Below are positions 1-64,000 of a stretch of 64,000 nt of DNA, piece after piece; position 1 is the first letter of the stretch; each line of letters starts with the position of its first letter. The DNA is from Terriglobia bacterium (GTDB lineage: Bacteria > Acidobacteriota > Terriglobia > 20CM-2-55-15). The position numbers were made by a program, and so were the translations under genes. The stretch covers positions 192,001 through 256,000 of the forward strand of contig CAXWPJ010000010.1 of the NCBI GenBank assembly GCA_963664115.2, in the 5' to 3' direction. The notes under the pieces were generated by a model. It saw only the letters and a list, made by a program, of their open reading frames with translations, did no database searches and had not been told where the DNA came from.

Positions 1-2103
1 GGCCACGGGCTCTACACGGCCCAGACCCAGCTCATCGCAGAAGAACTTGGAGTTGCGTTCGACCGCGTGAGATTGATTCAGTGTGACACGGCACTCACGC
101 CGGACCAGGGCACGACTTCCGGTGCGCAGTCGCATCCGGCGAATTTCAATCATGCAAACCTGGCACTGGCAGCAGCCACGGCACGCGAAGCGCTCCTGGA
201 ACGCGCCGCAGGTGAACTCGGCGTATCCGTGGAGAGCCTGGAAATTGACGATGGTGTGATCCGTGTCGCTTCGGACCCACAGCGTCAGATTGGCTACGGT
301 GCATTGATCGGCGGGGAAGCGTTCGCCATGCCGCTCAATCCGGCCGCCCAGCGAAAGCAACCCAGTACGTGGACCATCCTGGGCCAGTCCGTGCCGCGTG
401 TGGAGATCCCCGACATCGCGACCGGACGGTTCGAGTATGTTCACAACGTGCGCGTGGAGGGAATGTTACACGGACGGGTCCTGCGGCCTCCCGTCGTCGG
501 AGCGACCCTGCTCAGCGTGGATGAAAGCTCAGTTCAAGGCATGCCGGGCGTGGTGCGAGTCGTCACCCGGAACAACTTCGTCGGCGTGGTCGCCGAGAAG
601 ACATGGCAGGCCATTCAGGCGGCCCAACGACTGCAGATCACCTGGTCCACCCCCGATACACCATTGCCGCCACATGCAGGCTTCCACAACTGGTTGCGGA
701 ACCAGACACCCACACGGGACACTTTGCTTGTCAACTCGCAGGATGTAGACGCCAGTCTTGCCGGCGCCGCAACTCGACTGGACGCAAGCTACCACTATCC
801 CTATCAAATGCATGCATCCATCGGCAGTGCGTGTGCGGTGGCCGATGTCCGGGGTGACAGCGCCACGGTATGGTCCGCCACGCAGGCGGTGCACCCCCTC
901 AAGAATACGGTCGGCTTGGTCCTCGGTCTCGACCCCGACAATATTCGTGTCATCTTCCGCATGGGTCCGGGTTGCTATGGCGTGAACGGTGCAGACACTG
1001 TGTCCTTCGACGCGGCTCTTCTGTCGCAGGCAGTCGGCCGACCGGTTCGAGTCCAACTCAGCCGGAAAGACGAGATGGCGTGGGAAAATTACGGCAACGC
1101 GTTCGTCATCGACCAGCGTGCTGGATTGGATGACGACGGCAACATCGTTGCCTGGGATCATGAATCGTGGTCGCCGAACCTTGGCAGCCGTCCCCGAATG
1201 GACCGGCCTGGAAACGTGGTCACGGGATTTCTGGCCGGATTCGAGCCCGCACCGTTTGCCGCACGGAGTCCCGCGCCCCCACCCACCAATTTCAACAATG
1301 GAAGCAACGGCGTGCCGTCCTATGTCACGGGTGCGGTGCGAGGTGTATCGGGTGGAACAGGAGTGGTTACCAGTCAGCGCGTTCTGACTCATACAGTCCC
1401 ATCGCCGTTTTTTACAGGCCCTCTGAGATCACCGGCCCGTCTACAGAACACCTTTGCGCACGAGTCGTTTTTGGACGAAATTGCAGCGTCCATCCAGGCC
1501 GACCCCGTCGAGTACCGGCTACGTCATCTCCGCGATCCGCGTTTGATCGAGGTCGTGGAGGCGGCGGCCCGAGCGGCCAACTGGGAAACGCGGCCGTCGC
1601 CGCAGAACGGCGACAGGGACGCTGTCGTCGTTTCTGGTCGGGGGATCTCCTGTGTTCTCTACGAGGGGGATAACGGCTATTGCGCCATGGTTGCTGAGGT
1701 CGCAGTGGACCAGGACACGGGCGTCGTTGAAGTTCGGAGACTCACGATCGCGAACGACTGCGGACCGATTTCGAATCCAAATGGTCTGAGGAACCAGCTC
1801 GAAGGTGGCGCGTTGCACGGCGTCAGTCGAACGCTGCTAGAAGAGGTTACGTGGGACGACGAAAAGATCACTTCCGTTGACTGGCAGACTTACCACCCCC
1901 TTTACGTGGGTGCCAGCGTTCCCGAGATCGAGACGGTATTGATCAATCGCACGGAAGGTGAGGCCATGGGGGCGGGTGAGACTGCTGTGACGGTCGTTGC
2001 CGGTGCAATCGGGAACGCGGTTTTTGACGCCACCGGTGCCCGTGTCCGCCAGGTTCCGTTCACACCTGAACGCGTGAAGGCCGCTCTCGAAGCACGTGAA
2101 TGA
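1..2103 (+). CDS. Xanthine dehydrogenase-family molybdopterin-binding subunit (5' end outside window)
   Basis: Frame is open from the window edge. MoCo-binding-type motifs TPDQGTTSG, RSPARLQNTFAHESFLDE, NQLEGG and GAGE...AIGNAVFDATGARVRQVPFTP. Confidence 0.85.
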   Translation, partial: GHGLYTAQTQLIAEELGVAFDRVRLIQCDTALTPDQGTTSGAQSHPANFNHANLALAAATAREALLERAAGELGVSVESLEIDDGVIRVASDPQRQIGYGALIGGEAFAMPLNPAAQRKQPSTWTILGQSVPRVEIPDIATGRFEYVHNVRVEGMLHGRVLRPPVVGATLLSVDESSVQGMPGVVRVVTRNNFVGVVAEKTWQAIQAAQRLQITWSTPDTPLPPHAGFHNWLRNQTPTRDTLLVNSQDVDASLAGAATRLDASYHYPYQMHASIGSACAVADVRGDSATVWSATQAVHPLKNTVGLVLGLDPDNIRVIFRMGPGCYGVNGADTVSFDAALLSQAVGRPVRVQLSRKDEMAWENYGNAFVIDQRAGLDDDGNIVAWDHESWSPNLGSRPRMDRPGNVVTGFLAGFEPAPFAARSPAPPPTNFNNGSNGVPSYVTGAVRGVSGGTGVVTSQRVLTHTVPSPFFTGPLRSPARLQNTFAHESFLDEIAASIQADPVEYRLRHLRDPRLIEVVEAAARAANWETRPSPQNGDRDAVVVSGRGISCVLYEGDNGYCAMVAEVAVDQDTGVVEVRRLTIANDCGPISNPNGLRNQLEGGALHGVSRTLLEEVTWDDEKITSVDWQTYHPLYVGASVPEIETVLINRTEGEAMGAGETAVTVVAGAIGNAVFDATGARVRQVPFTPERVKAALEARE

Positions 2104-54520: not shown

Positions 54521-54967
54521 CTATCGTCCGCGCTGCCGGCGATACTCAGCGAGACGCGCCTCCATTATTCTCAATCGCTCGCCGAGCTGCCCGTTTCCAC
54601 CGCCAACTTCACTCCCGTCAGGCCGCGTGATGAAGGTCCATTCCACCATGTTCGATCCGTCTCGTGACGGGCGGCCCAATATGTGGATTCGATCCCCGGG
54701 CTTGAACTGATCCAACGTCCAGCCTGCTCGCCGGAGATTGATGACGCTGTCTCCCTCCGCCATCCAGGATTCTGTTTCACCTCGCTCATTCGTCACGTCA
54801 AAGTAAATCCGCGAATGCGGGTTGATCGCTCGAAATTCGGTCACCACGCCTTCGATTTCCATGCGCTCATCGACGATGTAGTGTGCCGCGGGGTTATGGT
54901 GGGCGAAGGCGGGCACTGAAACCAGCAGTGCGCCATAGACAAAGGTCAAGATCTTGCCTGTCATCAT
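54521..54967 (-). CDS. DUF6152-like exported protein
   Basis: AHHNPAA, AINPHS and LRRAGW...KPGD. Confidence 0.75.
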   Translation of the reverse strand: MMTGKILTFVYGALLVSVPAFAHHNPAAHYIVDERMEIEGVVTEFRAINPHSRIYFDVTNERGETESWMAEGDSVINLRRAGWTLDQFKPGDRIHILGRPSRDGSNMVEWTFITRPDGSEVGGGNGQLGERLRIMEARLAEYRRQRGR

Positions 54968-54983
54968 CTCACTGTCCTCCACA

Positions 54984-55835
54984 TCAGCGTTGCCCGGAGA
55001 TCGACTCGCAAGGGGCATCCAGCAAATCCACCTCGGGCGTACGGAGTCTAGTATGTTCTAGCACCAGCGGCTCTCGAAACATGACCGGATCGATCAGCGT
55101 GAACTGCATGTGCAGTCGGCGGCCATCCTCGCTGAGGGTGTAGCGCTCAATACTGCTCGCGTTATCGGCGTTGTGAATAGCCAGGTTGTCTTCGGCGACG
55201 TTAGCCGCGACATTCACGGTGTCCACCACCAGCGTAGATCCCTCGTACCGACCAATCGAATGACCCAGCGGGCTCGGTTGTGCGTCTTGTGGATGACCGC
55301 GTCCATCCGTGTAGATGACGCGGTCCGACGCCATGTCTTCTGCCCTGATGACGATGCGGTCGTCGTTCTGCTCGATCAGGATAGGGTCGTTGTGCAGTAC
55401 GGTGCGAAAGGCCCCGAAGTACTCACACTGAATAGAGGGATCGTCGGCGTGGTCGTACGTTGCCGCGTAGTCTGTACCTCCTTCGGTTAACAGAGCTGCA
55501 ATGGCTCGTTGGTTGTGATCGCGGACGGCTTGCCGGATTTCTGCGGCTGACAGATGGTCGTTCTCCGGGAGCAGGAGCTCACGAAGGTGCTCGTAGCTTT
55601 CCCGGGTACAGTTGCAGGCAAAGAGATCCTCGAGGGTCCAATCTGGGTGCTCGACAGAGGTTGTGGTCGTGCTCCACATGCCCGACAGGGCCGGAGGCGG
55701 CTGCTCCTGGGCCCCGGCGAGCGGTATGCCGAGAACGAGAGTGCCCGCGACGGCCGCGCCAAGGAGTTTATGTTTGGCGACCCTCGCGAAGGTACGCAGC
55801 AGCGGGACTCCGCGCGGGGCGATAACGAGTCTCAT
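54984..55835 (-). CDS. Exported hypothetical protein (commonly paired with DUF6152)
   Basis: RVIYTDGRGHP, GHSIGRYEGSTLVVDT and DPVMFREP. Confidence 0.7.
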   Translation of the reverse strand: MRLVIAPRGVPLLRTFARVAKHKLLGAAVAGTLVLGIPLAGAQEQPPPALSGMWSTTTTSVEHPDWTLEDLFACNCTRESYEHLRELLLPENDHLSAAEIRQAVRDHNQRAIAALLTEGGTDYAATYDHADDPSIQCEYFGAFRTVLHNDPILIEQNDDRIVIRAEDMASDRVIYTDGRGHPQDAQPSPLGHSIGRYEGSTLVVDTVNVAANVAEDNLAIHNADNASSIERYTLSEDGRRLHMQFTLIDPVMFREPLVLEHTRLRTPEVDLLDAPCESISGQR

Positions 55836-55968
55836 GATTCCTCAATGACGGACAGTTCCGTTTCTGAGTCGATTTTACCTGACTCGGCCACGGATTGGCC
55901 CGCAAATTCGATGCTAGAGGTTGATTTTCTGCTTGCCGATACAGACCACCCACACGTGATATCGCCCT

Positions 55969-56328
55969 AAGTGCTTCTGCGATCTGAAGTGCGAGTTTCA
56001 GAGACTCTTCAACCGGGATAGCCCCACGGCCAACACGATCTGCCAGCGTGTCACCTTCCACGAGTTCCATGACAAGGAAGTGGGTTCCATTGTCTTCTTC
56101 AAACCCGTGAATGGCAGCAATGTTTGGATGATTCAGCGAGGCCAGGAGTTTGGCTTCACGCTCGAACCGGGCAAGGCGATCTGTATCCTTGGCGAACTCT
56201 TCTGGCAGAGTCTTAATAGCAACCTCACGCCCCAACTTTGTATCCTTCGCACGCCACACTTCCCCCATACCTCCTCTTCCAAGGAGCGTTGAGATCTCGT
56301 AGTGGCCGAGTTTGGTTCCGGATTCCAT
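55969..56328 (-). pseudogene. Ser/Thr kinase N-terminal remnant (about 120 codons)
   Basis: Near-identical to the start of the intact kinase up to QIAEAL. Lacks HRD and DFG. Confidence 0.85.
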
Positions 56329-56475: not shown

Positions 56476-59145
56476 TCAAGGCACCGGCACCCGTTCCTTC
56501 AGTTCTTCAAACCAGTTTAGGACCACGATGATCTCGCCCCCGCGTGAGTCGTTCTCTGATTCGCGAATCATGAGAAAACGTTCGCCATCCGGCGCGATGT
56601 CGTAAGTGTGGGAACGGAATCCAGAGGATCGCAGGTAAGGACCGGAGAACAGCTCTCTCTGCTGCGTTGCCACGAAGGCCGGAGTCGTCTCGACCGAGGC
56701 CGCCATCACTCTACTCCCTTGGCGGTAGTAGATTTCAGTTCCGTTGGGGGACCATATAGGTTCTTCTCCTCCCGCTCGGGACACGCGCCATGGCCCTCCA
56801 TCTGCGACGTTAGGAAACGGCCTGACCAAGATCTCTGGTTGGCCTAACTCGTCGGACGAATAGACCATCCAGCGACCGTCTGGGGAGATTTGCGCGTGTC
56901 GTTCTCCCGAATCTGAAGCAAGCAGTGCCTGTGGACTGGGTTCACCAACCAGCGAGAGCTGTCTGAGGTCCGAGTCTGTCTCCGGCCTCACCGCGTATAC
57001 CAGCGTCTCTCCGTCAGGCGAGACAGAGGACAGTATCGGCGGTAATCCGGGAGGAAGTACCGCGATGCTCTCGGCTTGATCCGTGCCGTCCGCACGTCGC
57101 CGAAAAACCGTAAACACCCCCTCCGGGTCGGAAAGGAACACCACGTGTTGCCCATCCGGCGTCCACAACGGCTGCATGTCGGCTGTCGTCACATCGAAGA
57201 TGAATGGCCTTGTTGTTTCTCCCACCACGTCGTGCAGCCACAAATCTTCCCGAGACTCCGGACCCTCAGCAACAAGAGCGACCCTCATCCCATCGGGCGA
57301 AATCTGTACACCGCCGTAGGCGAGTGTCTCGCCTTGAAGAGGCTCTTCACTCCCCGCGCGATCGACCCATACCAACGCCCTTGCGCCGTCACCCATGTCC
57401 GCCGGGATGTAGGTCATCGCTCCGCTCTCAGCGAGGGCGAATTGCACCGCGCCACCGCCCTCTATTCGAACCCCCTCAAGCACCGGAAGTGCATTGCCGG
57501 TAATCTCGAGTCGGGACTCATCGAACGGGACCGCCCACAACGATGCGCCAGTCTGCGCGTAGAGTAGATGACCCGTAGGCGAGTAACGAGGGAAGAAGCC
57601 ATTGCCGAGCACCTTTCTCTCTCCGGTCTGCAGAGACACCACTGCAATCTGGGCCGTGTCCAGCGAACCTGACCAGATCGTGAATAGCACCGCGTCACCA
57701 GCAGGCAGGAACGCGGGCTCGTCGTGATATATCTCACCGGCTTGCAGCCTGGTCAGCTGCTCCGGAGCGCCTCCCGTCAACGATAGCCGCGAGAGTGCGA
57801 GCGTGTTGGAATCTGAAAACACGATCGTCTGATCGGGACCCCAGGTGCTACCAAAGCCACCACATTCGCAGATCGTTGTCGGCGATTCTCCTGCCAAAGA
57901 AACCCTCTTCAGACCGTCGGGACTCCCGAATGCAAGCCACTGGCCATCAGGCGAAAAGAAAGGGAAGTCCGCACCCTCCGAGCCGCGGATCGGTACGGCT
58001 TCAAGTCCGTTTATGGGACGACGGTACAGTTGGTCTCCCTCCTCAGTAAAGGCTCTGTAGACGAGTTCCTGACCGTCGGGAGACAGCGCGAGAAGATGCC
58101 CCACCCTTGGGGGGAGCTCACCACTGACATCGATTGCAAAACGTGCCGCAGTCTGGTTCGACGAAGCTGGTCCTGACGACCAACTGGCGACAACCGCAAT
58201 CAGGAGCGCAACCCCCGTGACAACCCACGGCACTTTCGACTGCGGTGCTGCATGAGCAACCCCACCAACCGACTGCACGAGCACACCGCTCGGGTCCGCC
58301 AGCACTTTCTCGATGTCCGCTTTCACATCACCTATATCCTGGAATCTTGTTGCGGCTTGTTTGTCAAGACACCGTTCCACCACTTCCCGAAGTCGTGGAT
58401 GAAGATTAGGGGGCAGAGTGTCCCACTCCGGCTGCAGGCTGATCACGGCCGAGAGAGACTCCGCCACATCGGACTTACCGAAGGACTGACGGCCTGTGAG
58501 CATTTCATAGAGGACACAGCCGAACGCGAATATGTCCGTGCGTTTGTCAACTGCGCGGCCCTTGGCTTGTTCAGGGCTCATATAGGCGGCGGTGCCGAGG
58601 ATCATTCCTTGCTGCGTAGCCGCCATACTCAGCGTTGGCGAGTTCGATACGCTTGCGTCGACCTCATCACCGGCAAACGCTTTAGCTAACCCAAAGTCGA
58701 GCACTTTCACATTGTCGTCGTCGGTGACTTTGATGTTCAGAGGCTTTAGGTCTCGATGGATGACACCTTTTTCGTGTGCAGCCTTGAGAGCATCGGCGAC
58801 TTGTAGAGCTATTTTGAGCGAGTCCTCAACAGCTATGGCTCCACGGTTTAGGCGATCCGCGAGTGTGTCCCCTTCGACAAGTTCCAAGACGAGGAAGTGC
58901 GTTCCGTTGTGTTCCTCAAATCCGTGGATGGCTGCAATGTTCGGGTGATTCAGAGAGGCCAGTAGCTTCGCTTCACGTTCAAACCGTGCAAGTCGGTCCG
59001 CATCCTTGGCGAACTCTTCGGGCAGCGTCTTGATCGCCACTTCGCGCCCGAGTTTTGTGTCCCGCGCACGCCAAACTTCTCCCATGCCTCCTTTACCCAG
59101 GAGGGTTGAGATCTCGTAGTGGCCGAGTTTGGTGCCAGATTCCAT
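56476..59145 (-). CDS. Hanks-type Ser/Thr protein kinase with a TM segment and PD40/TolB-like beta-propellers
   Basis: GKGGMG, VAIK, HRDLKPLN, DFG and YMSPE. TM segment VPWVVTGVALLIAVVA. SPDG repeats. Ends in VLNWFEELKERVPVP. Confidence 0.95.
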   Translation of the reverse strand: MESGTKLGHYEISTLLGKGGMGEVWRARDTKLGREVAIKTLPEEFAKDADRLARFEREAKLLASLNHPNIAAIHGFEEHNGTHFLVLELVEGDTLADRLNRGAIAVEDSLKIALQVADALKAAHEKGVIHRDLKPLNIKVTDDDNVKVLDFGLAKAFAGDEVDASVSNSPTLSMAATQQGMILGTAAYMSPEQAKGRAVDKRTDIFAFGCVLYEMLTGRQSFGKSDVAESLSAVISLQPEWDTLPPNLHPRLREVVERCLDKQAATRFQDIGDVKADIEKVLADPSGVLVQSVGGVAHAAPQSKVPWVVTGVALLIAVVASWSSGPASSNQTAARFAIDVSGELPPRVGHLLALSPDGQELVYRAFTEEGDQLYRRPINGLEAVPIRGSEGADFPFFSPDGQWLAFGSPDGLKRVSLAGESPTTICECGGFGSTWGPDQTIVFSDSNTLALSRLSLTGGAPEQLTRLQAGEIYHDEPAFLPAGDAVLFTIWSGSLDTAQIAVVSLQTGERKVLGNGFFPRYSPTGHLLYAQTGASLWAVPFDESRLEITGNALPVLEGVRIEGGGAVQFALAESGAMTYIPADMGDGARALVWVDRAGSEEPLQGETLAYGGVQISPDGMRVALVAEGPESREDLWLHDVVGETTRPFIFDVTTADMQPLWTPDGQHVVFLSDPEGVFTVFRRRADGTDQAESIAVLPPGLPPILSSVSPDGETLVYAVRPETDSDLRQLSLVGEPSPQALLASDSGERHAQISPDGRWMVYSSDELGQPEILVRPFPNVADGGPWRVSRAGGEEPIWSPNGTEIYYRQGSRVMAASVETTPAFVATQQRELFSGPYLRSSGFRSHTYDIAPDGERFLMIRESENDSRGGEIIVVLNWFEELKERVPVP

Positions 59146-59417: not shown

Positions 59418-60113
59418 TTAGCCGGCATATAGCAAGCTATAACCATACTCTTGTGCCCGTGTGAGGGCCATGACGCCGGCAGAAACGAAGCGGCTGTTCG
59501 GGATCGCTCCCGCAACCAGCTCCTCATACACGGCATCGGTAGACCCACCCTGAGCATTCGCAATCTGTTGAGCGAAAAACTGTGTCGCTGCATTACACAC
59601 GGCAAATTGGGTACCTCTCTCGACTAGAGAATCAATCGTATTCCCGAAATTTGGCAGAGTCGAATGATCGGCCGAGTTCATCAGGTTGATCATCGGCGGC
59701 CCGCCTGTGTCGGGATCTGAATAATTCATCAGTCCTTGAAAAACTCCACCATATTTCGACCAGACCCCGTCGTTGTAGCCAAAGGGAGTGGAGAGGTGGC
59801 GAAAGCAGACCACCATGGCGAAATCGACCGGGCTACCCGAGCAGGCATTCTCCTGAGCGTTGTAGAGGTTGTTCGCGTACAGCAGGGCCTCGGCCCCGCC
59901 CAATGCCGTAGCGGAATCGACGAAGACCCGGTGTTGACCCCCCAACTCGTCCATCCACCCGTCCAGCCCATGGCGAGTGGGCACGAAGCCAGCCGCCGAC
60001 TCTGTTGCCACCGGTGTCTGAGCGCATGCCGTCGTCGCCCCTACCGCGAAACCGGCGGCAGCGGCTCCCATTCCAACCATCAAACGTCGGCGTCCAAGGT
60101 TATCCTGCTGCAT
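59418..60113 (-). CDS. Tat-exported DsrE-like protein
   Basis: GRRRLM twin-arginine signal, FAVCNAAT and VSAGVMALTRAQEYGY. Confidence 0.7.
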   Translation of the reverse strand: MQQDNLGRRRLMVGMGAAAAGFAVGATTACAQTPVATESAAGFVPTRHGLDGWMDELGGQHRVFVDSATALGGAEALLYANNLYNAQENACSGSPVDFAMVVCFRHLSTPFGYNDGVWSKYGGVFQGLMNYSDPDTGGPPMINLMNSADHSTLPNFGNTIDSLVERGTQFAVCNAATQFFAQQIANAQGGSTDAVYEELVAGAIPNSRFVSAGVMALTRAQEYGYSLLYAG

Positions 60114-60254
60114 CGTGACGTCTCCTTTTGCGGGTTCGACGCGTCGAGTCACCGTGGATCGGTGTCTGGCGGTGAACCGAGTTTGCGATCCAAACTTCTC
60201 TCTATCAGGCAAGACAGAACCGCCATGCGGGTCGTCCTAAACTCATAGTGCAGT

Positions 60255-60412: not shown

Positions 60413-60506
60413 AGTCCTGAGAAACTTTGTAGGTAGTTGAGAAATAGGCCAATTATTGGGGTTTTTGGGGAATTCTCAACTTCCGCGAAGATGATTTCTC
60501 AGGACT
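60413..60506. repeat. Site pair B5 (60413-60437, shortened spacer) and A13 (60479-60506)
   Basis: agtcctgagaa-act-ttgtaggtagt-tgagaa, then acttccgcgaa-gatgat-ttctcaggact, then a tail remnant at 60518-60557. Confidence 0.8.
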
Positions 60507-60611
60507 TGAACTCGCAAATCATGGGACCGGCACGCGTTCCTTCAGTTCCTCAAACCAACGTCAGGCTGTTTTATACGTTCACGTTCGCAGCTCCAACGCT
60601 CACCTCGAAGA

Positions 60612-60839: not shown

Positions 60840-60867
60840 ACGGTTTTGGGGGATCGCGCAATTCTCA

Positions 60868-60895
60868 ACGTCCGAGAAGATGATTTCTCAGGACT
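60868..60895 (+). repeat. dif-like site A14 with kinase C-terminal fragment (60908-61060, minus strand)
   Basis: acgtccgagaa-gatgat-ttctcaggact, then YDITPDGERF...INIVLNWFEELKERVPVP. Confidence 0.85.
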
Positions 60896-61217
60896 TGACC
60901 TCGAAAATCAGGGGACCGGAACCCGCTCCTTCAGTTCTTCAAACCAGTTCAGGACGATGTTGATTTGGGGGACAGGGGCATCAGTGTCGCCAGTGTCCGC
61001 CACGGCGGTTGTCTGAACGAACACGAACCGCTCGCCGTCGGGAGTGATGTCGTACGTTGGAGCTAAAGTAATCTCGTTCAGCTTAACCCGAGCATCGCGA
61101 TCGGAACCAGGGATTATAGTTGACATGCACGGGGGAGAGGATCATATTTCGGGGCCAAGGAGCAATTCAAATCGGAAATTCCGGTTAAGTTGCATCCCGG
61201 TTCAAGGAGGTCTGAAA

Positions 61218-63398
61218 ATGAAGCGAGTCGATTTTTCTCACTGGCGCCGGAAAACAACTAGAGTCGCGGTTCTGGCTGTGGGAGGGGGTTTGGCTGCCGG
61301 GGCGCTATCCAGTGCTGCTGTTGCACAGTATTCCACTTTCCCGCAGGTCAACCCCGCCGTCACCACGAGGATTGACCGCGCCCCGAACTGGCTCAATGAA
61401 CCCGATCCCAATGAGACCTTCGCCGGACAGGTTGCAGTATTCGCCGCGGGGGACGAAATCATCGCGGCAAGCCCCCGGAAGCTCTTCGTTTACGATCGGC
61501 TAGCCAATACTCCCCCCAGGGCTACGTTGACGGAACCAAAGCGCCTGATCGCCGGAGAAGCTACCCTAATGTCGGACAACTGCGGTATCTATGTGGACCC
61601 GGAGACCGGCGAGATTTACGCCATTTCCAACGACATTTCCAACGCTTTGACCGTCTTTGGCCCGAGCGACACGGGGAATATAGCTCCGCGACGGAAGCTG
61701 ATCACTCCCCAGACCGTCTACGGCATGTCAATAGATGACGAGAGCGAGGAGATGTTTATGACCGTCGGGCATCCTCCGGCGGTGTTTGCGTTCGACAAGT
61801 TCGCCGAAGGAAATGACCCCGCCAAGCGCATCTTGGAGGGGTACCACACCCAGCTCGCTTATCCCCACGGAGTTGCAGTGGATCCCGAGAACCAGTTGAT
61901 GTATGTCATCAATAACGGCGCGGTGGCAGACAGTTATGGTGGGCTGGCGTGGCGGAGGTGGCCGGTCCCTCAACTGGACGGCGAGCCTCCAATGAACACA
62001 CTGTGGGGGGTCCCCTGCCAGAACGTGCCCGGAATTGATTGCCAAAATGGAGGGGAGTGGTACCGGGAGTTTCCAGGCAATCGTTACAAGTTTCTAGGCC
62101 GGGGGACTGTGATTCCCGGCAGCGGCCGGTTTGAGCCTCCCTCGATCACGGTCTATCCGATCAAGGCGGACGGGGATGTGCCCCCGATCCGGGTCATCCA
62201 GGGACCGAACGCGCAGTTGAACTGGCCCATGCATATTTTCGTGGATAGCGAGAATGGAGAACTTTTTGTGGCCAACGCTGGTGGAAATTCCATTCTGGTT
62301 TTCCGCGTCACCGACAACGGCGATGTGGCGCCGATTCGAACCATCAAGGGGCCCCAGACAGGACTCAGGAATCCTGTCGGCGTCTGGGTAGACAACGAGA
62401 ATGACGAGGTGGTGGTGTCGGATGTGCGTACGCACTCGGTGTCCGTCTTTCGACGCACGGCTGACGGCGATACCCCGCCGCTGCGAGTCATCCGCAACTC
62501 ACCTCTCGGCGTGGAGGCCCCGTCTCTCGGGCGAGTGACCGGCATAGCCTATGATAGCAGGCGAGATCAGATCCTGGCGCCGAACTGACTGGCGTACCCG
62601 CAGATTGCGGCATTCGCCAGGCTGGCGACGGAACCAGGGCAGATGCCCGTGAGGTTGATCCAAGGGCAGGCAACCAAGTTGGCTCGCAGCGTCCACAACG
62701 TCCGTTATGACCCGGTTCATGATGAATTCGTAATCGCCTCTCCAGTGGCCCAGGCCATTAGTGTCTTCCGAGGGGGGGCCGATGGCAACGAAGCGCCGCT
62801 CCGGGTCATTCAAGGACCTAACACGATGCTGTGGGACCCCGACTTCGTGGACGTGAGTGGTGTTCACAACGAAATTTATGTTACTTCCGGCGAGAGGGTT
62901 CTGGTATTCGATTCACAGGCGAATGGGGATGTGGCCCCGCTCCGGGTCATCGAGGGCCCCAATGCTAGGTTGGGCAGGATGCGGGGAGCTCCGCAGGTCG
63001 TAGAGGATCTCGACCTGATGGTCGTAGGTTCGGGCCCCATCCCAGGGGAACCGGACAACAGAGCGCTGTTGATCTTCAACCGGACCGACAACGGAAACGT
63101 GGCGCCCCAAAGGGTGATTACTTCGGTTTCTGTGGGAGGCGACTTCGTGGTCTCGCCGAAGGGCTGGATCCTGATCACGGGTAGAGGAGAAGATGGATAC
63201 AGAGAGATCCGCATCTGGAGCGTCTACGACGATGGAGACGCTCCTCCCCGCTGGGTTTTTGGAGGCCCGCAGAGTAATTTGGGTGGCGGCAACTTGGCGT
63301 TGAATCCGATAGCAAAAGAGGTGATGGCGCTGACTGGCGACGAGAACACCATCGCAGGGTACCCTTTACCGGAGATTTTCGATATCGACGCGAACTAG
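61218..63398 (+). CDS. Exported multi-blade beta-propeller protein with an in-frame TGA at 62586-62588 (candidate selenoprotein)
   Basis: RBS aaggagg. The repeats (DGDVPPIRVIQGP) continue in the same frame on both sides of the TGA. A hairpin lies directly after the TGA. Confidence 0.7.
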
Positions 63399-63459: not shown

Positions 63460-63605
63460 GTTTAGCTTAGCGCCGCAGCGAGACATTGGGTCAAGTGACA
63501 CCCGAGAAGAAGAAAGAAAGTGAATCACCGTTTCTCATGTCGAAAAATACCTCGACGATATCAAAACCGTGGTTTGTCAGAAGACTGCGGGACAAGTTCC
63601 GACGG

Positions 63606-64000
63606 AACCTGTTCTCGCACGGGCTCCGGAATCCGGTTCCAGCAGAAGCCGGGGCCGAAATGCCGATCCAATAAACCGGCAGCGCCACGCTCTTTGTATC
63701 GCCGATACCAGTCATAGAACGTACTGCGAGGGACTCCCAGTTCGCGCAATGTCGCTGTCACCGACAACTCCGAGTCTTCCACCAGCCGAATCGTTTCCAG
63801 CTTTTCCGATCCCGATTGCCTCATATATCGATACTCTCGGAGTCCGCTATGTTCAGCGTTTTTTTCAGAAAACGATTCTTCAGCAGTATTTCAGCCACGG
63901 CCTGCTTCAGTTGTTCGTTCTCCTGCCGCAATTCGGTGCCTTCGCTCGATGTCGCTTCCCGCTTCGTGTCCCCAGCCAGCCGTTTCTTCCCCGCCTCCAG
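63606..64000 (-). mobile_element. Truncated relative of the IS at 15901-17390
   Basis: MRQSGSEKLETIRLVEDSEL...VREQV, then homology stops. Runs off the window end. Confidence 0.85.

Follow-up and report, generated by a model that had tools for sequence, protein, structure and literature searches.

Near the end of a 64,000-nucleotide stretch of DNA from a Terriglobia bacterium (contig CAXWPJ010000010.1, positions 192,001 to 256,000; hereafter the window), an in-frame TGA at 62586-62588 separates two apparent genes for a beta-propeller protein. From sequence evidence, we assign a probability of about 0.92 to this TGA being decoded as selenocysteine (Sec). With the TGA read in this way, the two apparent genes become one predicted exported protein, the product of read-through from ATG 61218, comprising 726 amino acids with a single recoded codon (U457). 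At the level of sequence, the gene behaves in every test as a standard bacterial selenoprotein gene. By NCBIfam and catalogue tests, it represents an uncatalogued and highly expanded family, very likely of selenoproteins.

The original prediction, made from the letters of the window alone, had pointed to an in-frame TGA after DQILAPN with the frame running on beyond it. The sequence confirms this: past the TGA the frame continues with LAYPQIAAFARLA and ends at TAG 63396-63398, leaving 269 open codons 3′ of the TGA. The wider proposal, of an exported 726-residue beta-propeller selenoprotein with an uncatalogued fold, is likewise supported by the sequence-level tests below. Each refuting outcome that the original prediction listed was checked, and each check favoured the selenoprotein reading; the prediction did not notice that the gene is one of 13 copies.

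The UGA column, the decoding machinery and the hairpin

First, the TGA recurs across the family. A tblastn search of the genome finds a TGA at the column of residue 457 in 13 of 13 full-length paralogues, the window copy included, which places the in-frame TGA far beyond chance. These paralogues have at least 405 open codons 5′ and at least 256 open codons 3′ of the TGA, with identities of about 40-84% (12 aligned). Across the genome and retrieved loci, 133 distinct genes were read as DNA at the column: 118 have TGA, 14 TGC, 1 TGT and none TAA or TAG. As resemblance to the window's TGA gene decided the ranking of loci, the ratio of TGA to Cys (118:15) does not give a frequency for the family. 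Thirty-four of 167 tblastn rows were excluded as off-register repeat matches (E >= 1e-19), none of them with TGA, TGY, TAA or TAG.

Proteins tell the same story. Among the best 120 of 3588 database matches, 107 of the 108 that span the column have Cys and one has Trp; the other 12 terminate exactly at the column, being 11 orthologues and the protein's own entry. The original prediction had proposed looking for Cys or a conserved TGA in homologues, and these two states account for all 133 genes and all but one of the spanning proteins. The best 150 cluster representatives include 25 that terminate at the column, 17 that cross it with Cys and 3 that begin immediately after it; the remainder are fragments or distant repeat proteins. 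A 456-residue truncation identical to the window copy leads a cluster whose 14 sequences come from 4 contigs. A FastTree tree with 223 rows, from which the Trp-bearing protein was excluded, shows at least 23 changes of the Sec/Cys state, in a direction that the tree, being unrooted, does not give.

Individual members of the family have peculiarities of their own. The sole spanning homologue with Trp, P0043, is possibly a TGA gene translated under another code by a gene caller. L126:6131 is a TGA gene with a variant loop that is nested among Cys-form genes on the tree, a possible recent gain of Sec from Cys. The paralogues at G000 C2:357125-359296 and C9:1077051-1079291 are near-identical, probably by recent duplication, and the C2 copy adjoins a transposase-like gene. 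The closest orthologue, L011 (G001:C41), has an extra G in the G run matching 62771, which shifts the frame about 60 codons past the TGA through assembly error or decay.

Second, the genome (4.89 Mb, 97% complete) holds the machinery. The original prediction had named selA, selB, selC and selD as genes to look for, and all four are present, with selA, selB, selD and tRNA-Sec each above curated cut-offs. The tRNA-Sec scores 71.6 bits against a cut-off of 47 and is the sole TCA-anticodon tRNA found. The genome's own SelD gene carries a TGA, followed 20 nt past the UGA by a hairpin with a 7-bp stem and a GGA loop. TGA is at the same time an ordinary and the commonest stop of this genome, ending 544 of 1128 long open reading frames (ORFs). 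The family is borne by 16 of 61 related genomes, 14 of which have a selA match, some in pieces.

A hairpin-filtered scan gives at least six other likely selenoproteins in the genome, a lower bound. Five TGA-interrupted genes with a downstream hairpin are of known selenoprotein types: two AhpC/TSA, one of which has a DsbD-N domain, two deiodinase-like and one rhodanese (G000 C2:701068 (+), C12:242716 (+), C2:768686 (+), C5:131175 (-) and C10:288080 (-); loci L150-L154). A further TGA candidate, C10:429159, had the look of a shadow frame and was set aside. No Sec-bearing formate dehydrogenase was found, six molybdopterin-family matches having no internal stop under a profile that may not span the site. 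Beside selD, L142 and L143 (G040 and G056) show a second SelD N-terminal motif with a TGA, a different continuation and no matching hairpin.

Third, a small hairpin downstream of the UGA tracks the TGA. The original prediction had singled out the hairpin at 62589-62620 as resembling a selenocysteine insertion sequence (SECIS). That hairpin exists where it was placed, and folding of 62586-62650 predicts it as the structure of lowest energy (-27.1 kcal/mol); its stability by itself is within chance (z = -1.63), being matched in 16 of 200 shuffles. We rejected its outer stem as the SECIS: it is intact in 2 of 118 TGA genes, and the loop lies 14 nt past the UGA against a minimum of 16. The inner stem, 62598-62610, a possible secondary element, is intact in 80 of 118 TGA versus 4 of 15 Cys genes, yet the two groups show no energy difference over this stretch (p 0.39).

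The likely SECIS of the family, judged from conservation, is instead a second hairpin at 62614-62628, whose stem is prolonged to the places of 62612-62630 in most members. The bacterial SECIS (bSECIS) consensus, as set out in the portion of PMC13188914 covered, has a loop of 3-9 nt with G in its first two positions, a stem of 4-16 bp, a spacing of 16-37 nt from the UGA and a minimum free energy (MFE) no higher than -7.5. Applied by hand, this published model fits 62614-62628, with its 3-nt GGC loop, 6 bp and spacing of 31. The energy is borderline, at -7.9 kcal/mol for 62612-62630 and -7.2 for the bare 15-mer 62614-62628.

Several comparisons separate TGA from Cys genes at this hairpin. An MFE <= -7.5 for the 62612-62630 hairpin is reached in 108 of 118 TGA versus 0 of 15 Cys genes, and the 5-bp core of 62614-62628 survives in 111 of 118 TGA genes versus 1 of 15 Cys genes, with synonymous shuffling leaving it intact in 16% of copies. 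The Arg codon within the hairpin is AGG in 109 of 117 TGA versus 2 of 10 Cys genes; genome-wide, AGG makes up 7.6% of Arg codons. The pair 62612:62630 is Watson-Crick in 81 of 118 TGA genes (31.9 +/- 4.8 when shuffled), using four Watson-Crick types, and five adjacent slid control pairs are at chance level. In L018 and L028, the stem is preserved through double changes that alter the protein.

The outer stem of 62589-62620 overlaps the 5′ arm of 62614-62628 and would sequester it. During translation, the footprint of a ribosome would melt this outer stem, so that the 62614-62628 hairpin could form; by established SelB biology, SelB-GTP-Sec-tRNA would then bind the GG loop while the ribosome holds the UGA.

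Predicted fold, candidate chemistry and distribution

AlphaFold2 models the whole protein with twelve blades (predicted local distance difference test (pLDDT) 87; predicted template modelling (TM) score 0.86). Residues 62-429 match the NHL domain of TRIM71 (9jur) with Z 27.9 and a root-mean-square deviation (rmsd) of 2.1 Å over 245 aligned residues, and the C-terminal half, folded alone (pLDDT 92.9), matches that of TRIM2 (7qrv; Z 25.1, rmsd 2.6 Å, 248 aligned). Comparison of the model range 49..726 with Brat (1q7f) suggests that propeller 2 is likely closed by N-terminal residues near 49-60. Pfam NHL (PF01436) scores 33.3 bits against a cut-off of 20, and PF10282 passes marginally (22.7 versus 21.7) over 84 residues. 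We considered a single large-ring propeller, given the low whole-model TM-scores, and rejected it on the match of each half to six-bladed domains. Against the whole model, no tandem propeller of solved structure exceeds a TM of 0.32, and among 27 sequences of solved structures we found short NHL-repeat matches only. A search of longer proteins returned no full-length fusion and six weak matches, which is weak evidence. A hydrophobic N-terminal stretch is present in 188 of 196 full-length family members versus 1 of 196 in an internal control, and the twin-arginine translocation (Tat) motif in 0 of 196.

The two halves are predicted to close on each other. When the halves of the Cys homologue P0029 were folded as a pair, they scored 0.92 against 0.22 for the best control, with at least 87% of contacts agreeing between runs and a partner pLDDT of at least 90; 116 of 157 solved complexes and 2 of 215 mismatched pairs reach the mark applied to pair scores, figures that are only approximate for a split chain, whose halves would be expected to pass in any case. 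More informative is the predicted interface, which comprises the equivalents of C122, D139, H185, H217, W336 and H406 on the propeller 1 side and of U457, H460 and R490 on the propeller 2 side; His493 is absent from this list. These residues map to top-face loops of both propellers, and the models predict a face-to-face closure. By standard propeller topology, the loop after the second strand of a blade, where residue 457 is placed, belongs to the top face.

Arg490 is kept in 224 of 224 family rows and His493 in 223, alongside His217 (205), Asp139 (205), His406 (186) and His460 (160) on the two top faces. The window protein has Cys or Sec only at 122, 267, 275 and 457, and all three Cys are kept in 12 of 12 members of its orthologue group, its own protein included. 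A Pfam scan shows no thioredoxin family, and a local UxxC or CxxU motif is absent. Cys122 is found in 84 of 106 TGA genes versus 13 of 118 non-TGA forms. After correction for kinship, 5.1 pairs go the same way, 0.0 the opposite way and 11.8 show no difference (median p 0.0625). No link between His460 and Sec is seen on the tree. With about 47% identity to the closest named loci, the window copy falls in a divergent subfamily.

We consider it possible, if somewhat short of an even chance, that residue 457 is a selenolate nucleophile acting with His493 and Arg490 on small organic substrates and resolved by Cys122 where that residue is present. Under this scheme the protein would be exported and would fold into a closed two-propeller clamshell around Sec457. 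As a periplasmic enzyme, it would let its selenolate attack a small organic substrate in the cleft, aided by His493 and Arg490; in most Sec forms, the selenium would be resolved by formation of a selenosulfide with Cys122 of the other propeller. The paralogues may cover different substrates, some of them brought by neighbouring TonB-dependent receptors.

The pattern of TGA plus hairpin occurs at 13 sites in the genome and at up to 29 in relatives, and is confined to the same 16 of 61 genomes as the family, with 0 for the reversed control. In metagenomes it occurs in at least 122 stretches, and 77 of the 80 retrieved encode the family across the column. Named relatives are nearly all Acidobacteriota (84 of 91 genes), as the window's genome probably is too, with few in other phyla. 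The distribution is patchy: of 200 further genomes sampled across the phylum, with no more than 11 candidates scored in each, one gave a match. A large TonB-dependent-type receptor is the most frequent neighbour, in 32 of 85 loci and regions, and amidohydrolase-3 genes and genes read from sequence as UbiD-like occur in 8 and 6 of the 85, respectively. Within the genome, a TonB-dependent receptor lies at most 1 kb from 6 of 13 paralogues versus 4.9% of random windows. DUF6152 neighbours are not enriched: 0 of 13 within 1 kb versus 9.6% of random windows, with about 116 DUF6152-like loci in the genome.

Taken further, these data would fit an undescribed class of extracytoplasmic selenoenzymes, NHL clamshells with Sec and resolving Cys on opposite faces, present in up to 29 copies as the dominant selenium-using family of these Acidobacteriota and acting on substrates delivered by TonB receptors. 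We advance this full description tentatively, as a proposal less likely than not to hold in full.

Alternative readings of the codon and of the chemistry

A number of observations pull against the selenoenzyme reading. On the RNA side, a distant control pair (26:47) also exceeds its shuffle (39 versus 25), and kinship therefore inflates pair counts. The window copy's hairpin ranks 105 of 118 in stability (-7.9 kcal/mol). Free RNA favours the 62589-62620 stem outright, leaving the 62614-62628 hairpin with a probability (P) of 0.00; with 5′ bases masked, P ranges from 0.04 to 0.98 by the window chosen for folding. Two family-bearing genomes, G015 (81% complete) and G056 (95%), have no selA match, and both have selB, a TGA-bearing selD and tRNA-Sec. 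On the protein side, the tie of Cys122 to the Sec state is no more than suggestive after kinship correction, 22 of 106 Sec genes have no Cys122, and the window copy deviates at family residues (His460 to Tyr, Asp215 to Tyr). The half-pair calculation split one chain, for which a shared closing strand alone would yield an interface, and direct contact of 122 with 457 is not among the 25 pairs listed. As for the neighbourhood, no receptor gene lies closer than 19 kb to the window copy, and all 13 copies are clustered in only six regions.

If the TGA were a true stop, the halves would be separate genes, and translation would restart either one codon on (GTG in most relatives) or at ATG 62643. GTG does directly follow the TGA in 107 of 118 TGA versus 8 of 15 Cys genes, gene callers start some downstream halves there (3 of the best 150 representatives), and TGA is the commonest stop of the genome. 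We nevertheless regard this as very unlikely: TAA or TAG is found in 0 of 133 genes, a Shine-Dalgarno-like 4-mer precedes the next codon in 0 of 118, the window copy has CTG after its TGA, the break would halve blade 7 and leave a second part with no signal peptide, and unbroken homologues have Cys at the aligned residue. Reading of the UGA as Trp or Cys, through code reassignment or a special tRNA, would account for the Trp of P0043, itself perhaps a gene call under another code, and is highly improbable in a genome where TGA ends 544 long ORFs, where tRNA-Sec is the only TCA-anticodon tRNA found and where the SECIS-type hairpin tracks TGA. A pseudogene or an assembly error at the TGA is scarcely credible. 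The codon of the window copy is known from the assembled sequence, but the same TGA recurs in the other 12 paralogues, the G001 orthologue and 16 of 61 genomes, the 456-residue truncation heads its cluster of 14 sequences from 4 contigs, and the counts of 118 TGA, 15 Cys and 0 TAA or TAG refute this explanation at the family level. The family could also be recoded while the window copy is poorly recoded or regulated, its 62589-62620 stem sequestering the SECIS so that most product ends at residue 456. The competing stem (P ~1.0 in free RNA), the weak 62614-62628 hairpin, the one-base insertion of the nearest orthologue (G001) in the G run after 62771 and the only mild bias towards synonymous changes relative to G001 (16 synonymous/17 non-synonymous upstream, 9/13 downstream) all fit this. 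We judge it improbable, given the 269 open codons with a confident fold past the TGA, the intact 5-bp core and GG loop and the end point shared by eleven orthologues from four sources; moreover, the competing stem begins at the first base past the UGA, where a ribosome would probably cover it, and the G001 insertion, which falls within a homopolymer, could be an error of assembly.

Granted recoding, two other chemistries deserve weight. Sec457 and the conserved histidines might bind a metal in the cleft, in which case the periplasmic protein would bind or depend on metal instead of acting as a thiol/selenol redox enzyme. This would suit the high conservation of His493, His217, His406, His460 and Asp139 on the two top faces, the absence of a local UxxC or CxxU motif, the lack of Cys122 in most Cys forms, which retain Cys457 all the same, and the fold shared with metal-dependent six-bladed enzymes such as peptidyl-alpha-hydroxyglycine alpha-amidating lyase (PAL; Z 25.1). 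We think it doubtful: unlike PAL, propeller 1 has one His only (His217) at its six pocket positions, the P0029 half-pair output has no zinc contacts, and the trend of Cys122 with Sec better suits redox chemistry. The protein might also be a non-redox nucleophilic hydrolase or transferase that uses a Sec/Cys-His pair and grips a carboxylate through Arg490, or it might bind ligands without catalysis as a partner of TonB-dependent receptors. Arg490 and His493, which scarcely vary and which topology places close to the Sec loop, and the neighbouring receptor (32 of 85), amidohydrolase-3 (8) and UbiD-like (6) genes are consistent with such roles, which we hold to be unlikely though worth keeping in view: a costly Sec codon and SECIS kept over 13-29 paralogues would be hard to square with plain binding, and the lactonase and YncE models score far under their cut-offs.

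Relation to known families and surroundings of the gene

Each half resembles known NHL propellers (PF01436; TRIM71 9jur, TRIM2 7qrv, Brat 1q7f and the PknD sensor 1rwi) with Z 25-28 and rmsd 2.1-2.6 Å; the window protein differs in its 15-22% identity, its tandem arrangement with predicted top-to-top closure, its predicted export and its Sec. PAL (3fw0) shares the six-bladed NHL likeness (Z 25.1 and 23.5 to the two halves), but is a single propeller with 14-16% identity, and its three-His zinc site does not appear to be reproduced in propeller 1. The PAL active site lies on the top face, where zinc is held by three His from Pro-His-Gly loops of one propeller. The corresponding His in the window protein would be His217 in propeller 1 and His493 with the variable His441 in propeller 2. 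NHLRC2 and SOQ1 (6gc1, 7djk; Z 26-27) likewise place an NHL propeller in a redox-linked protein; their redox cysteines sit in a separate thioredoxin-like domain, whereas by Pfam no such domain is present here and the Sec would sit in the propeller itself. Cys homologues bear the source names 'YncE family' and 'beta-propeller fold lactonase family' and share beta-propeller repeats. The NCBIfam scores for 6-phosphogluconolactonase and YncE are far below cut-off (NF008258 20.4, and in no case above 27, versus 370; NF052280 at most 17.8 versus 400), and those families are seven-bladed by model name while the halves here are six-bladed. No NCBIfam model passes its cut-off in 5 full proteins and 72 C-terminal halves.

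Bacterial genes decoded through SelB, such as SelD and FdhA (PMC13188914), share the in-frame UGA, Cys homologues, sel genes and a small G-G loop 16-37 nt past the UGA; the differences here are the propeller fold, the missing UxxC or CxxU and the 13 copies, or 29 in a relative. In the portion of that May 2026 catalogue covered, none of the 119 families of its Table 1 has a row for propeller, NHL, YncE or lactonase. Term searches for the family gave no match in the available text of PMC13326102 and one supplement of about 4 million characters, possibly incomplete, and nothing describing it in the available text and four supplements of PMC12013277 or in the available parts of PMC9312934, PMC2398784, PMC1976440 and PMC13745706. 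The family is thus likely, though not certainly, absent from print, on a survey whose scope lay outside subscription journals and bioRxiv supplements.

If the recoding is right, gene callers split a large family, as with the 25 of the best 150 representatives that stop exactly at the UGA column, and the prokaryotic selenoproteome gains a fold absent from the covered part of the 2026 catalogue (PMC13188914). The 13 copies exceed the at least six other likely selenoproteins of the same genome. The top ten selenoproteomes in BSepDB hold 46-63 genes, according to the available part of PMC13326102, and in relatives with 19-29 copies this one family would equal about half of that. With more than a hundred natural Sec/Cys pairs, no fewer than 23 switches between the two states and a well-defined SECIS, the family would make testable both the benefit of selenium to an enzyme and the gain and loss of a SECIS inside coding sequence. 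Features of the gene are collected in Table 1.

Table 1. Features of the predicted selenoprotein gene, in window coordinates
Feature	Position	Strand	Basis or remark
Shine-Dalgarno-like AAGGAGG, 7 nt 5′ of ATG 61218	61204..61210	+	sequence
Full gene, 726 codons + TAG, single in-frame TGA (U457)	61218..63398	+	aligns over its full length with Cys homologues
Predicted Sec-pathway signal peptide, residues 1-36: basic N-region, hydrophobic core, AVA before Gln37	61218..61325	+	
Propeller 1, residues 62-429, predicted six-bladed NHL	61401..62504	+	AlphaFold2 model, Pfam NHL
Cys122, at a pocket position on the top face of propeller 1; candidate to pair with Sec457	61581..61583	+	
Cys267 and Cys275 in a low-confidence insertion (pLDDT < 50) typical of the subfamily; possible structural disulfide	62016..62042	+	
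Propeller 2, ~residues 437-726, predicted six-bladed NHL	62526..63395	+	separate AlphaFold2 model
In-frame TGA, inferred Sec457, mid-blade after second strand of blade 7	62586..62588	+	
Hairpin of the original prediction, ctggcg-tac-ccgca-gat-tgcgg-catt-cgccag	62589..62620	+	outer stem nearly copy-specific; inner stem 62598-62610 partly family-wide
Likely bSECIS, 6-bp stem, GGC loop 62620-62622, 31 nt past UGA	62614..62628	+	conservation in TGA genes
Arg490 (62685-62687) and His493 (62694-62696), near-invariant, top face of propeller 2	62685..62696	+	

Assembly contigs from four RNA-library runs, belonging to two studies, overlap parts of the propeller gene. Two of them bridge the TGA (X18, 61432-62960, about 93% alike; X17, 62541-62714) and, as DNA carry-over is possible, are not counted as expression. 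Two small-share runs carry a sponge metagenome label and one a seawater label; we claim no habitat from them, and a literature search in that direction turned up nothing relevant.

Around the gene, the divergent neighbour at 59418-60212 (-) encodes about 231 amino acids with a twin-arginine-like leader and has no Pfam match. Upstream of the propeller gene, 60460-60560 and 60860-60975 hold fragments of about 90-115 bases like the 3′ end of the neighbouring Ser/Thr kinase gene; contig C10 holds numerous similar copies (320 blastn rows), and a 5′ kinase fragment (55768-56328) comes after the full kinase gene (56476-59145). A DUF6152 gene and an unnamed partner of about 283 amino acids occupy 54521-55835 (-). 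Immediately 3′ of the propeller gene, 63561-64000 carries frames that read as transposase-like, with similar sequence at C5:60047-61998.

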